The notes under the pieces: model-generated | Told to the model about the DNA's origin: nothing | Databases searched by the model: none | What the model saw: the letters and a program-made list of their open reading frames with translations, nothing else | NCBI GenBank assembly: GCA_002308995.1 | Contig: DBWQ01000005.1 | Coordinates: forward strand, 28,592 to 92,591 | DNA: 64,000 nt | Direction: 5' to 3' | Source of the DNA: Clostridiales bacterium UBA1234 | GTDB taxonomy: Bacteria > Bacillota > Clostridia > TANB77 > UBA1234 | Program-made: the position numbers and the translations under genes | Shown: positions 18,688-21,301 of the stretch, piece after piece | How the letters are laid out: each line of letters starts with the position of its first letter | How positions within the stretch are numbered: position 1 is the stretch's first letter

Positions 18688-18725
18688 AAAAGGCACTTTG
18701 TGAACAAGTCACAAAGTGCCTTTTT
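18688..18725. terminator. Bidirectional rho-independent terminator at the left edge of the GC-rich island
   Basis: AAAA-GGCACTTTGTGA-acaag-TCACAAAGTGCC-TTTTT: a perfect 12-bp stem flanked by A and T runs. Confidence 0.7.
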
Positions 18726-18740
18726 GAGATTGGTCGATGG

Positions 18741-19409
18741 TCAGTCCACGCAAAGGTCCACGTGAATGCCGTATCTCCGGGGGTCACCGCGCGCTTCGAG
18801 CAGGTCGTTGAGCTCGTTGATCAACCGAGCTGCATCGAAGTAGAGATCCCAGATGTGGCTCTGGACGAAGGCCTCCTTCTCGGCTTCGAGCGCGGCCGCT
18901 TCGGCAGCCATCCGCGCTTCCTCCTCGAGGGCCATGGCCTCATCCTCGAGGAGCTGCGCGTCGATGTCGAGTGCGTCCATGGCCGCCTTGGTGCGGTCCT
19001 GCAGGAGCTTCTGGCGCCGCTCAAGGCCATTGTAGAGGCGATAGTCGCGCTTGCCGGCCTTGGCCGCGCGCTTGGGCTCCGCCATCCACATTCCCGTGAA
19101 GGGGCTGTGCCAGAGCACTACGCCCTTCGGGACGGTGCCCCTCTTGAGGGTGGGAGCCTTCCAGCCAGTCTGGCACTGCGGAACGGTCACGCCCTTGGGG
19201 CCGCGGATGGCCTGGTTGGCCTTCCAGGTCTTCCGGCGCCGATCTGCGCGCTTCTTCTTGGGCATCTGCGGACGCGGGTCGAAGTCAAAGTCGTTGGAAA
19301 ACAAGCTACGCTCCGAGGGCTTTTCGTCTCCTTTCTGGGCCAGGGTTTCCTGATCCGGGGTGAGGTATCCCTCCAAGAGGGATTCGGCCATGCTCATTTT
19401 CTTCGGCAT
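18741..19409 (-). CDS. GC-rich orphan protein A (222 aa; basic low-complexity N-terminus, acidic coiled-coil C-terminus)
   Basis: AAAGGAGAATTTT-ATG RBS, GC3-rich codons and a terminator just downstream. No motif recognised. Confidence 0.6.
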   Translation of the reverse strand: MPKKMSMAESLLEGYLTPDQETLAQKGDEKPSERSLFSNDFDFDPRPQMPKKKRADRRRKTWKANQAIRGPKGVTVPQCQTGWKAPTLKRGTVPKGVVLWHSPFTGMWMAEPKRAAKAGKRDYRLYNGLERRQKLLQDRTKAAMDALDIDAQLLEDEAMALEEEARMAAEAAALEAEKEAFVQSHIWDLYFDAARLINELNDLLEARGDPRRYGIHVDLCVD

Positions 19410-19500
19410 AAAATTCTCCTTTCTATGCCCTCATAGCAAACGTAATACACCTAGATTGTGCATTCGTGCTATGTTCAATTCGGATTTTCGTACAGTTAAT

Positions 19501-19529
19501 AGTATACCAAAAATTAGTAATTTTGTCAA
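19501..19529 (-). promoter_or_regulatory. Near-consensus sigma-A promoter for orphan A
   Basis: On the minus strand: TTGACA, 17 nt, then TGG-TATACT (extended -10). Confidence 0.55.
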
Positions 19530-19586
19530 TATTATGTTTACTAGTAAGCAATATTTTTGTGAATTTATCAAATGTTATAAAAGTAA

Positions 19587-19615
19587 TTGACGCTTTATGT
19601 TAACTATGGTATAAT
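19587..19615 (+). promoter_or_regulatory. Near-consensus sigma-A promoter for orphan B
   Basis: TTGACG, 17 nt, then TGG-TATAAT. The core TTTATGTTAACTATGGTATAATA is nearly identical to the orphan C promoter. Confidence 0.55.
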
Positions 19616-19720
19616 AGTTACCGTATCCCGCACATACCCTTTTGATACTTCTATTACAATTCGGTAATAGAAAAACTTTGAGACCTTGCGCAATATGATA
19701 GCGCAGAAAGGATTTGCCTT

Positions 19721-20407
19721 ATGGAAGATAAGGTGCTCGCGTCCCAGAACCTCAGCAATGCCCCTTCCCGCCCGAACCTCTCGACGTCGTACGTTCACGA
19801 CCCCTTTCCACGTTACCAGGAACTCAAAGATAAGTACCTGAGCGGGTGGAGGCTTCTGCAACAACTGCAACAGGCCCAGACCGAAAAGGCTGTTTTCCAC
19901 GCTCTGAAGAATCTCAAGGCTGTCATCAAGCAGCTCGAGAAGCTCCAAGAGCTGGATATCCGCCCCGCCATGGAGGAGCTCCACCGGCTGGAGCTGCGGG
20001 AGGTCTCCCGCTTTGACCTGGATCAGGTGGAAAGCCTGCTTGCCCAGCTCGGCGACTTGGTCGACGAGGCCGAAATGGCGGTCTCCGAGTACCACCTGCA
20101 GAGCGTTCTCCTGCAGGCGAGCTACGACCGGCGGATTGCCAAAACCGTCGGCCAGCGCGGTCTGGAAGGCCTCTGTCTGTCCGAAGAGCTGCTGAGCATC
20201 CTCGTGAAGCTCAGCAATGAGCTCGGGGAAAGGCCTGTCTTCACCAAGGCCAAGATGGCCATTATGCTCGCTCGCATTTCCAAGATCATGGAGGTGCAGG
20301 AACTGGTGGGCCAGTATGGCCTGAATGGACTGGCGACTGCTCCCAAGGACGTCCTCGAGCTCATGGTGAACGTCGTGACCGACGTACTCCAGGACGACGA
20401 GGACTAA
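19721..20407 (+). CDS. GC-rich orphan protein B (228 aa, predicted all-helical, acidic C-terminus)
   Basis: AAAGGA RBS, GC3-rich codons (CTC/CTG/GCC/AAG/GAG) and a terminator downstream. No motif recognised. Confidence 0.6.
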   Translation: MEDKVLASQNLSNAPSRPNLSTSYVHDPFPRYQELKDKYLSGWRLLQQLQQAQTEKAVFHALKNLKAVIKQLEKLQELDIRPAMEELHRLELREVSRFDLDQVESLLAQLGDLVDEAEMAVSEYHLQSVLLQASYDRRIAKTVGQRGLEGLCLSEELLSILVKLSNELGERPVFTKAKMAIMLARISKIMEVQELVGQYGLNGLATAPKDVLELMVNVVTDVLQDDED

Positions 20408-20420
20408 GCCCACAAAAAAA

Positions 20421-20465
20421 CCCTCAAGAAGAAGGTTCTATTCCTTCCTTCTTGGGGGTTTTCCC
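20421..20465 (+). terminator. Imperfect hairpin plus T-run after orphan B
   Basis: CCCTCAAGAAGAAGG...CCTTCCTTCTTGGGGG followed by TTTT. Confidence 0.45.
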
Positions 20466-20487
20466 CTATTTTACGCTTTTGTCAAGG

Positions 20488-20516
20488 TTGCTATTTTATG
20501 TAAATTATGGTATAAT
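20488..20516 (+). promoter_or_regulatory. Sigma-A promoter for orphan C
   Basis: TTGCTA, 17 nt, then TGG-TATAAT. Confidence 0.5.
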
Positions 20517-20597
20517 AATAAGTGACTCAATATCTTTTGTACAGCGCGATACCCTTAGTACAGACTGTATTGGGATCTCAATGAAAGGAGATTTGTT

Positions 20598-21212
20598 ATG
20601 AATACAAATCTCAAGTCCGCGTTCACCACCCTCGCCACCCTGTTCACCCACCTCAAGGTCGGATGCAAGCGGCTCGTCCGTATCATCCGCCTCGGATGGC
20701 GCCGCTACCTCAGCCCGTATCACCATGGGCCAAGTCGGCGCGATCTCCAGGAAGACTACGCCGACCTTCGGCGGCTGCAGGCCATCATGGCCCTCGGCTT
20801 CCTGTGGTTCGCCGTAGGAAGCATCAAGGCGCCCAACTGGAGCGTTAAGGCCTGGGGGCTTGCTGCCGTCTCCGCGGTGTTTTTGGTAGCCATCGGCTAC
20901 CTTGGCCACCGCATCGACGCGGTAGCTGCGGATTTCCGCGCTTCTCTTCGGTCAGGAGAGCGCGTTAATCTCGATACCCCCAACCTCAACGCTTTCGCGG
21001 CGAGAACGTCCGATGCTGCACAGAGAGCTGCCACGAATCTCGCCCGCCTGCTCCGGCGCGCCGTCCTCCTCACAGTCGTCGTGGCGGTGGCTTCCGCCCT
21101 TGTTGTGGAGAATGGGTGGCTTTCGAGCTATCCCATCCTCCGCGAGATGGCGGAAACCGTTGTTCAGGCCGTGAACAGCGGACTTACCTGGGTCATGAAC
21201 TGGATTGGTTAA
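20598..21212 (+). CDS. GC-rich orphan protein C (204 aa, 3-4 TM helices)
   Basis: AAAGGAGATTTGTT-ATG RBS. Hydrophobic segments are LQAIMALGFLWFAVGSI, WGLAAVSAVFLVAIGYLG and AVLLTVVVAVASALVV. Confidence 0.55.
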   Translation: MNTNLKSAFTTLATLFTHLKVGCKRLVRIIRLGWRRYLSPYHHGPSRRDLQEDYADLRRLQAIMALGFLWFAVGSIKAPNWSVKAWGLAAVSAVFLVAIGYLGHRIDAVAADFRASLRSGERVNLDTPNLNAFAARTSDAAQRAATNLARLLRRAVLLTVVVAVASALVVENGWLSSYPILREMAETVVQAVNSGLTWVMNWIG

Positions 21213-21225
21213 GGCCCACGGCATC

Positions 21226-21274
21226 AAAAAGAGTCGCTCCCGGAAACACGGGTAAGCGGCTCTTTGCCGTTTTA
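21226..21274 (+). terminator. GC-rich hairpin plus T-run after orphan C
   Basis: AGAGTCGCTCCCGgaaacaCGGGTAAGCGGCTCT followed by TTGCCGTTTT. Confidence 0.45.
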
Positions 21275-21301
21275 TTGGTTACAATAAGTCATTTTTTTAC
21301 T

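Follow-up and report, generated by a model that had tools for sequence, protein, structure and literature searches.

A GC-rich, strain-variable islet of three orphan genes carried in AT-rich expression units in Clostridiales bacterium UBA1234

Composition and coding content of the islet

We analysed a stretch of 64,000 nucleotides (nt) of contig DBWQ01000005.1 from Clostridiales bacterium UBA1234 (assembly GCA_002308995.1), referred to below as the window, in which an islet of about 2.6 kb holds three genes, here called A, B and C, whose base composition departs from that of everything around them. Gene A (18741-19409, minus strand) encodes an orphan protein of 222 amino acids (aa), gene B (19721-20407, plus strand) an acidic protein of 228 aa that is predicted to be all-helical, and gene C (20598-21212, plus strand) an orphan basic membrane protein of 204 aa. 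The three are mutually non-paralogous.

While the GC content of the window as a whole is 0.348, the open reading frames (ORFs) of A, B and C have values of 0.635, 0.590 and 0.615, and their GC content at third codon positions (GC3) is 0.830, 0.786 and 0.732, against 0.20-0.39 in all other ORFs of the window longer than 150 aa. By codon position the GC content is 0.65/0.43/0.83 in A, 0.69/0.30/0.79 in B and 0.63/0.48/0.73 in C, a periodicity that supports coding for all three. The non-coding DNA stands at 0.31 to the left of A, 0.315 between A and B, 0.37 between B and C, and 0.46 to the right of C. A sliding scan of GC content agreed with this picture: the islet is the sole anomaly in the 64 kb, and elsewhere 500-nt stretches never exceed 0.45. 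The first-pass annotation of this DNA, made from the letters alone, had remarked on the G/C-ending codons amid AT-rich spacers, and had considered the combination of GC-rich coding sequence with AT-rich regulatory DNA unusual; these values bear out the pattern, and the puzzle that it poses is genuine.

Codon usage is equally distinct. At least a dozen CGG codons had been noted in the islet against none in about 5,600 host codons, and the full count is 16 (6 in A, 4 in B and 6 in C) against none among 15,266 codons in 29 host ORFs. Host-rare codons, defined as those contributing less than 10% of their synonymous family, make up 195 of the 621 islet codons (~31%) but 530 of 14,713 in host genes (3.6%). 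Amino-acid usage is shifted as well, with more alanine (11.3% vs 5.6%), arginine (7.6% vs 3.0%) and leucine (13.5% vs 8.3%) and less isoleucine (3.1% vs 8.1%) than in host proteins. A, B and C have one codon-usage signature in common (mutual r = 0.75-0.88) that is uncorrelated with that of the host (r = -0.05 to -0.19), and given that this codon and amino-acid signature is unrelated to the host's, the coding blocks appear to stem from a different compositional regime.

No over- or under-used k-mer stood out in the islet genes against synonymous shuffles, which rules out motif avoidance such as the evasion of an RNase or a restriction enzyme, and a translational gate built on rare CGG codons was rejected because the CGG positions differ between the B alleles described below. 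Outside the islet, CGG is found in a single ORF (62982-63989, minus strand, two copies), which also has the highest GC3 of the host ORFs (0.39), lacks a Pfam match and may be another foreign gene.

Three autonomous expression units

Each of the three genes lies within a transcription unit of its own. A promoter scan recovered, at the positions first annotated, three near-consensus sigma-A promoters with extended -10 elements, and the individual terminators that had been assigned to the genes correspond to hairpins found 3' of A, B and C. The expression scaffold of A (19410-19529, minus strand) consists of the promoter TTGACA-17-TATACT (19529-19501, with TGGTATACT at the -10 side and a TG extension), a leader of ~85 nt with a hairpin adjacent to the ribosome-binding site (RBS), and the RBS AAAGGAG (19422-19416); the gene is followed by an intrinsic terminator (18688-18724, minus strand) with a 16-bp stem, an A-tract and a T-tract, which could work bidirectionally. 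In the B scaffold (19587-19720, plus strand) the promoter TTGACG-17-TATAAT (19587-19615, with TGGTATAAT at the -10 side and a TG extension) precedes a leader of ~100 nt with two hairpins and the RBS AGAAAGGA (19705-19712), and the terminator (20421-20472, plus strand) comprises two hairpins in succession and then a T-tract. The C scaffold (20488-20597, plus strand) is built from the promoter TTGCTA-17-TATAAT (20488-20516, again with TGGTATAAT at the -10 side and a TG extension), a leader of ~75 nt and the RBS AAAGGAG (20584-20590), and C ends at a terminator (21226-21276, plus strand) in which a long imperfect hairpin is followed by a T-tract. Transcription is predicted to start near 19495 (minus strand) and, on the plus strand, near 19622 and 20523. 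The leaders fold modestly better than shuffled sequences (z ~ -2.2, -2.3 and -1.4) and match no Rfam family, and the intergenic segments of the islet have no relatives elsewhere in the 64-kb window.

The promoter core common to B and C, which had also been noticed at first pass, is a 23-nt string present in the window only at 19594 and 20495, with 0 occurrences expected. A scan of species-representative genomes for this core returned 55 loci (L010-L064) in AT-rich gut and rumen Clostridia genomes at which the same promoter string, spacer included, stands before unrelated AT-rich genes. The string reads TTGnnn, then T, then TTTATGTAAATTATGGTATAATA, with the 17-nt spacer kept; the downstream genes are mostly small and the genomes uncultured. 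Among these loci conservation stops at the -35 and +1 positions, and since it ends with the promoter, the string is a consensus and not a mobile sequence, and the islet promoters are native in style. A propagated mobile promoter was ruled out on the same grounds, conservation being limited to the promoter and the downstream genes being unrelated and AT-rich. By a rough chance estimate, thousands of AT-rich genomes should yield tens of hits to an AT-only 23-mer that contains the extended -10 consensus, a figure comparable in magnitude to the 55 found, and the shared string is possibly an optimal promoter typical of the clade.

Two other resemblances were discarded: the motif TCAATAT recurs near the unit boundaries no more often than chance predicts for a 7-mer in AT-rich DNA of 770 nt, and the promoter spacer resembles the XerD arm of dif, a likeness judged coincidental, the second arm being missing.

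Flanking repeat and insertion site

The islet had been described as free of flanking direct repeats, but it is bracketed by a direct repeat of 24 matches in 26 nt. The left copy (18635-18658, TTCTATTGGTTTCAATA--TCATTTT) overlaps and contains the -35 box of the promoter of the vWA operon, and the right copy (21270-21295, TTTTATTGGTTACAATAAGTCATTTT) begins in the T-tract of the C terminator and is kept in L004, a strain contig discussed below. The local alignment score of the repeat (14.5) was reached by none of 2000 dinucleotide shuffles of the edge zones and was matched by 0.12% of random segment pairs from the window. Between the two copies lie 2,635 bp, with all three units and their regulatory DNA inside. 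Given that the repeat brackets all three units, the islet would be one discrete insertion, and since promoters and terminators are enclosed as well, the wiring is most likely part of the inserted piece and probably did not evolve gene by gene at this locus. Thus, of the earlier suggestion of a selected, domesticated module, selection is supported for B (dN/dS 0.27, see below), while domestication gene by gene at the locus is not.

Both neighbouring host signals are intact, in agreement with the first description of an islet placed between them without damage. To the left is the promoter of the vWA/XpaC/TelA operon (18621-18649, minus strand, TTGAAA-17-TATAAT by promoter scan), downstream of which lie the RBS GAGGGGGA, the vWA start codon at 18592 and genes with Pfam VWA, SBP_bac_11, TelA and Halogen_Hydrol domains. 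To the right is the terminator (21303-21331, minus strand) of a unit formed by a small ORF and the A2M/thioester-protein gene (21679-26736; Pfam MG2, A2M, TED_complement). The wider context is chromosomal, with Alr, MutY, MurJ, a Mur ligase, TelA, A2M and SLH proteins. As had been annotated, neither an integrase nor a transposase was seen at the islet; Pfam searches of the window ORFs placed no recombinase within or beside it, and none of the window ORFs longer than 150 aa encodes a tyrosine recombinase.

An empty site would read, on the plus strand, ...TATCGATAATTTCTATTGGTTTCAATA(AG)TCATTTTTTTACTAAAAAGAGGCACG..., with one repeat copy joining the vWA promoter to the host terminator. The vWA anchor found no match in species-representative genomes (the query carried 21 spurious N-terminal residues, and one of its six peptide patterns was ineffective), the B alignment and the host terminator found none in JGI metagenomes, and the leader and promoter found none in viral contigs.

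Gene products

A, B and C had been judged unrecognisable, and across family libraries, a large protein collection and phage and plasmid records all three are indeed orphans. None belongs to a family in Pfam, PHROGs, PADLOC or NCBIfam; the PADLOC defence models match neither A nor C, and B no better than E = 0.52. The protein collection, which comprises 5.8 billion clusters, returned only A, B and C themselves together with two B alleles (74-76% identity), and no B-like paralogue from the source genome. A HMMER profile of B, run against 1.84 billion representatives of ~15 billion proteins, gave a single marginal hit (P0011), which was ruled out as a relative, being an unrelated tandem-repeat protein in a 3.9-Mb genome; relatives of A and C were sought by word-seeded searches of the collection. 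Neither the profile nor the word-seeded searches yielded a relative in any GC-rich context, and the guess of an actinobacterial or Coriobacteriia-like donor made at first pass thus finds no support. Phage and plasmid records searched with the islet by blastn and tblastn, and sequence searches of the PDB with A and C, gave no match.

In an AlphaFold2 model of A, the first ~95 residues are basic and disordered, followed by a small beta hairpin and a single helix of ~87 residues (120-206); the basic N-terminus first proposed is thus retained, and the proposed acidic coiled coil is better described as this one helix. The model of B is all-helical, as had been anticipated (pLDDT 65), and Foldseek found no match for it in the PDB or BFVD at E <= 0.001. 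C carries a net charge of +12, and its hydropathy profile shows hydrophobic segments clearly at ~81-106 and at ~148-176, with a possible third (~62-82) by eye only, in place of the three or four transmembrane segments first assigned. A and B contain neither signal peptides nor membrane segments and look cytoplasmic.

Divergence between strains

Three metagenome assemblies in ENA hold diverged versions of the islet in the same scaffold. The comparison set consisted of three B alleles on contigs of 1.0-1.4 kb, and divergence of the host was taken from 45 synonymous sites. The B alleles differ by 0.59-0.67 at synonymous sites (dS) and by 0.17 at nonsynonymous sites (dN; dN/dS 0.27), changes at third positions are twice as frequent as at the other two, and all indels are multiples of three; because of these features B is, on the alleles compared, a genuine gene under purifying selection. 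The neighbouring host ORF, in comparison, has a dS of 0.07 and a dN of 0.004.

This divergence is confined to the coding blocks. Between the window and contig L004, B is 77.6% identical, against 94.8% for its promoter and leader, 93.7% for the B terminator with the C promoter, and 97.7% for the right flank, which includes 175 nt without any difference; in L004, L005 and L006 the B scaffold is 94-95% identical. Measured in 50-nt segments, identity is 0.88-0.93 in the one that directly precedes the start codon and 0.72-0.74 in the first within the gene, divergence beginning within ~25 nt of the start codon, and it recovers ~12-15 nt past the B stop. The remaining stump of C in L004 is, by estimate, ~80% identical to the window, and L005, which carries the beginning of a differing A allele, shows similar divergence across the first 22 A codons. 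The scaffold itself is not obviously constrained, with substitutions striking the -35 box of A (TTGACA to TTAACA), the -35 box of B and the TG motif of B. While scaffold mismatches per strain pair number 7, 7 and 8, the corresponding dS values of B are 0.67, 0.59 and 0.22, which hints, in these small counts, that scaffold and coding block may have separate histories.

Short GC-rich tails of similar sequence stand just 3' of the stop codons of B (20405-20416, TAAGCCCAC) and C (21210-21222, TAAGGCCCAC). Between strains the tail diverges along with the coding block and the terminator beyond does not, and the tail may be left over from a 3' boundary that the foreign blocks had in common.

Units are lost singly. 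In L004, C is deleted from its -10 box (~20511) to ~21171, ~40 nt before the stop, with B and the host flank kept, and in L006 homology to the window begins at 19521, inside the -35 box of A, the A unit being absent upstream of B. Positions 1-98 of L006 are AT-rich DNA with an ORF running away from B and no match in the window; either B lies in another context there or the A unit has been replaced, the contig being too short to tell.

The composition of B has been kept through this divergence. All three alleles have a GC3 of 0.75-0.79 and ~30% host-rare codons, third positions identical across all of them are 85% G/C, and 20 of the 79 third-position differences (25%) are C-to-G or G-to-C changes. 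Exchanges between C and G are normally among the rarest bacterial mutations, and their share here, together with the stable GC3, implies that G/C was preserved while the alleles diverged. Third-position changes polarised on the two recent branches amount to 18 from GC to AT against 5 from AT to GC, a net loss of GC that is weaker than the ~9-11:1 calculated under the host bias (GC3 0.26). In these sequences the drift would fit a slow decay of foreign DNA and clearly does not look like ongoing enrichment. All substitution classes are present (C-to-T and G-to-A number 12 and 7), and the spectrum bears no single-enzyme mutation signature.

Natural occurrence

Three sequencing runs encode exactly this B protein, with the same neighbours each time. 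In run SRR5324850, which appears to derive from the source strain, the Logan contig L066 corresponds to window positions 3986-18912 and includes the left junction, and L001 corresponds to 18885-27020 and includes the right junction, both at 100% identity. Contigs from SRR094437 and SRR094926 cover 18885-26699 at 99.98-100% identity; SRR094926 belongs to a cow-rumen metagenome study (SRP004875), and its accession number suggests that SRR094437 comes from the same study. Across overlapping stretches the strain is 100% identical in the three runs, with no within-strain variation seen. The Logan contigs of two runs break at the identical base, 18885, inside A, and the 28-nt overlap (18885-18912) is GC-rich and includes GCGGCCGC. 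Since the two SRR5324850 contigs overlap by these 28 nt and are both 100% identical to the window, the break is an effect of the assembly graph and not a structural variant.

Origin of the islet

We read this locus as an accessory islet of foreign origin that varies between strains and is made up of three moron-like expression units, a reading to which we attach an even chance; no known family provides a fit. The islet would have entered in one piece between the terminator of the A2M/thioester unit and the vWA-TelA promoter, leaving a direct repeat of ~24 nt at each end. Its coding blocks would derive from, or have been maintained for a long time under, a compositional regime unlike the host's, such as that of a genome with ~60-65% GC, and its regulatory scaffold would be AT-rich and native in style. 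Each unit would bring a near-consensus Firmicute sigma-A promoter with an extended -10 element, a leader of 75-100 nt, a small hairpin beside a strong Shine-Dalgarno sequence, one orphan protein gene and an intrinsic terminator of its own. On such an arrangement A, B and C would be transcribed constitutively, insulated from the neighbouring host operons, and the very strong promoters and RBSs would offset the poor codon adaptation of genes in which ~30% of the codons are rare in the host. The products, C as a basic membrane protein, B as an acidic helical soluble protein and A as a disordered basic region joined to a long helix, might then act as dispensable, fast-evolving accessory factors. 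Given that small, fast-evolving and individually dispensable proteins are typical of mobile-element cargo, a role in exclusion, defence or competition may be proposed by analogy.

Among the other explanations, an artefact in the form of a chimeric contig, GC-rich contamination or an engineered construct is hardly credible, even though the layout is vector-like, with a consensus promoter, an RBS, a foreign ORF and a terminator three times over, and the Logan contigs break within A at 18885 in two runs. That break is a mere 28-nt overlap of two contigs that each agree with the window at 100%, an independent assembly and runs from the cow-rumen metagenome of 2011 reach across both junctions, and three further metagenome assemblies contain naturally diverged alleles, a natural deletion of C and in-frame indels, so that the possibility of an assembly or engineering artefact, as first raised, is refuted as far as sequence data go. 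We regard it as just as improbable that the GC-rich blocks are structured non-coding RNAs whose ORFs are by-products of GC richness. A GC-rich island that has a promoter and a terminator of its own within an AT-rich genome is the classical signature of a structured RNA, and long antisense ORFs run through A and B; these antisense ORFs arise, however, because TTA and CTA codons are absent and TCA nearly so, and the RNA interpretation is contradicted by the strong codon-position periodicity of all three genes, by the dN/dS, third-position changes and in-frame indels of B, by a strong Shine-Dalgarno sequence at the proper distance from each ATG, and by Rfam searches at E up to 1, which gave nothing beyond chance-level terminator hits. 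A scenario that merits more consideration, though it too is unlikely, starts with the recent, direct transfer of the three genes out of a high-GC donor among the Actinobacteria or Coriobacteriia; each gene would then have gained its host promoter, leader and terminator separately at the locus. It would account for a codon and amino-acid signature like that of a genome with ~60-65% GC and a preference for CTC, GCC, AAG, CGC and CGG, for GC values by codon position that lie on or above the Lawrence-Ochman regression lines, with no visible amelioration, and for promoters in the style of the host clade. It would also demand three separate and precise gains of promoter, leader and terminator, for which the islet intergenic segments offer no relatives elsewhere in the window to copy from. 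A repeat that encloses both units and regulatory DNA suggests that the mosaic predates insertion here. Nor does the transfer appear recent, given that alleles at a dS of ~0.6 share one scaffold; no sampled high-GC organism holds a homologue; and the promoters and RBSs are of Firmicute type, which speaks against the element as a whole being actinobacterial.

Alternatively, a process confined to the coding blocks could have kept A, B and C GC-rich and hyper-divergent in place, the candidates being repeated conversion from unlinked GC-rich silent copies, as at the expression site of Borrelia vlsE, GC-biased conversion at a polymorphic and highly recombinogenic locus, targeted hypermutation, for instance of strongly transcribed DNA with a foreign composition, and selection for GC-ending codons at the level of codons or mRNA. 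What speaks for such a process is the sharpness of the boundaries, GC richness and divergence alike starting no more than ~25 nt from the start codon and ending ~12-15 nt past the stop, along with the contrast between the dS of B and the values for the host gene and the scaffold (~5.5%), scaffold distances that are equal among three strains while coding distances vary threefold, the uniform GC3 of the alleles with their many exchanges between C and G, and the fact that all known alleles lie within the AT-rich scaffold. Yet the 64-kb window contains each islet coding block only once, the protein collection has no B-like paralogue from the source genome, the recent branches lose GC on net, the substitutions carry no single-enzyme signature, the CGG positions are not conserved, no k-mer is avoided, and the shift extends to amino-acid composition, beyond what codon-level selection alone would produce. 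Variation of a surface protein is unlikely as well, since A and B lack signal peptides and membrane segments, and the discordance with the scaffold rests on 7-8 mismatches per strain pair. We therefore hold an in situ process of this kind to be rather improbable, and consider it doubtful to a like degree that the islet is a new type of compositionally insulated, fast-evolving cassette of AT-rich, Clostridia-like bacteria, in which the AT-rich scaffold would be a constant expression socket and the roughly ten-fold excess of divergence would have been made in place.

Several observations nevertheless weigh against the foreign islet that we favour. In the sequences searched no donor is visible, A and C being without relatives and B having none outside the AT-rich scaffold among ~15 billion proteins, and phage and plasmid records appear to hold no relative of the islet. 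No mobility gene lies in or adjoins the islet, the sole recombinase of the window, a large serine recombinase, being 35 kb away. An empty site was retrieved neither from species-representative genomes nor from JGI metagenomes, because the host is barely sampled; all host proteins form singleton clusters in the protein collection. The allele sampling is also thin, with three B alleles on short contigs. GC-rich coding sequence with AT-rich regulatory DNA is not explained by simple transfer and decay: the intergenic DNA is at host composition while the synonymous sites are un-ameliorated, and with these sites still at ~80% GC, decay cannot have brought the intergenic DNA of a donor down to 31%. 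Some GC-preserving force acted while the alleles diverged, as far as sampled inside the AT-rich scaffold, and the reading accounts neither for the excess divergence of B over the host gene and the scaffold nor for the halt of GC richness and divergence at the gene boundaries.

Comparison with known systems

Morons are independent promoter-gene-terminator units of atypical GC content inserted between phage genes (PMC3594210). Like them, A, B and C are each autonomous, with their own promoter and terminator, have a GC content (59-64% vs ~34%) unlike that of their surroundings, lie between intact neighbours, and are dispensable and variably present. Unlike morons, the islet lies outside a prophage, among chromosomal housekeeping and envelope genes and with no match to PHROGs or phage records, it strings three units in a row within one repeat-flanked insert, and its composition breaks between each gene and that gene's own promoter and terminator, not between unit and neighbours.

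In the amelioration framework of Lawrence and Ochman, acquired islets are recognised by atypical GC content and codon usage. The islet conforms to that pattern in its base, codon and amino-acid usage, its flanking repeats and its variable presence, and departs from it in having no integrase, no tRNA target and no identifiable donor, in combining host-like intergenic DNA with un-ameliorated synonymous sites, and in alleles far more diverged than the flanks. With site-specific integrative islands it has the direct repeat (24/26 nt) in common but not an integrase.

Integron cassettes are usually promoterless and lie beside IntI and attI with a common promoter. The islet resembles a cassette array in its small orphan ORFs, tight boundaries, conserved inter-ORF DNA and gain or loss of single units, and differs in lacking IntI, in having a promoter for each gene and in the inversion of one unit. 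Neither form of the attC core site (GTTRRRY or RYYYAAC) occurs in the four non-coding segments of the islet, and the post-gene hairpins are followed by T-tracts and were read as terminators; with no attC sites and no tyrosine recombinase, an integron was ruled out. So was the target of a diversity-generating retroelement, there being no reverse transcriptase domain and no second copy of islet segments in the window; the sites at which B alleles differ are spread over all bases (G 43, C 49, T 26 and A 34 in the window allele) and are not adenine-specific.

In Borrelia, vlsE varies between an expression site and silent cassettes, and its locus is much GC-richer than the AT-rich genome around it. 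The islet is similar in that a GC-rich, hyper-variable coding block stands between a conserved promoter and leader and conserved gene ends in an AT-rich genome. It differs in that no silent copies occur in the window or among the source-genome proteins in the collection, that A and B look cytoplasmic, that three unrelated genes are affected, and that no within-strain variation was seen in the three runs. Elements without an integrase can also be mobilised in trans, as are repeat-flanked cis-mobilisable elements and the Xer-dependent IMEX. The islet shares with these its shortness, its bounding repeat of ~24 nt, the absence of a recombinase of its own and the convergent terminators that meet at the repeat, as they would in a circle; unlike IMEX, its repeat has no likeness to a dif site, as judged by eye only, and no cognate recombinase, second site or excised form is known.

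If the islet is merely foreign, it offers a clean natural example of poorly codon-adapted alien genes that are kept useful by being plugged into near-consensus native expression units instead of being recoded, and it adds three protein families without relatives among ~15 billion sequences. Were a process confined to the coding blocks at work in place, it would imply a mechanism that sets the regime of mutation or conversion gene by gene in a bacterial chromosome, with a bearing on the old question of how GC content is controlled and on accessory genes whose evolution outpaces that of their surroundings by an order of magnitude. Both readings can be tested directly, since the locus is small and bounded and is found in rumen metagenomes as well as in a genome that looks cultured.

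Genomic surroundings

The recombinase mentioned above (55881-57587, minus strand, 568 aa; Pfam Resolvase, Recombinase and Zn_ribbon_recom) sits at ~56.0 kb in the most AT-rich part of the window (GC 0.24-0.28), with ORFs lacking Pfam matches at 59.7-61.9 kb. Its region is probably a separate integrated element, and no link to the islet was found.

The islet itself is located amid a cluster of genes for very large envelope proteins (8986-33581). The cluster comprises two alpha-2-macroglobulin-like proteins, one of 1656 aa and one of 1685 aa that has a TED thioester domain, the operon for vWA/SBP, XpaC, a protein of no assigned type and TelA, and a 2241-aa protein with SLH, InlB-repeat and vWA domains, and the islet looks to be centred in a region for cell-surface stress or defence. 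In the 3' part of the gene for the 2241-aa protein, two adjoining tandem-repeat arrays (26971-27395) have periods of 36 nt (x5.8) and 42 nt (x5.4) with 95% matches, and would encode repeats of 12 and 14 residues.

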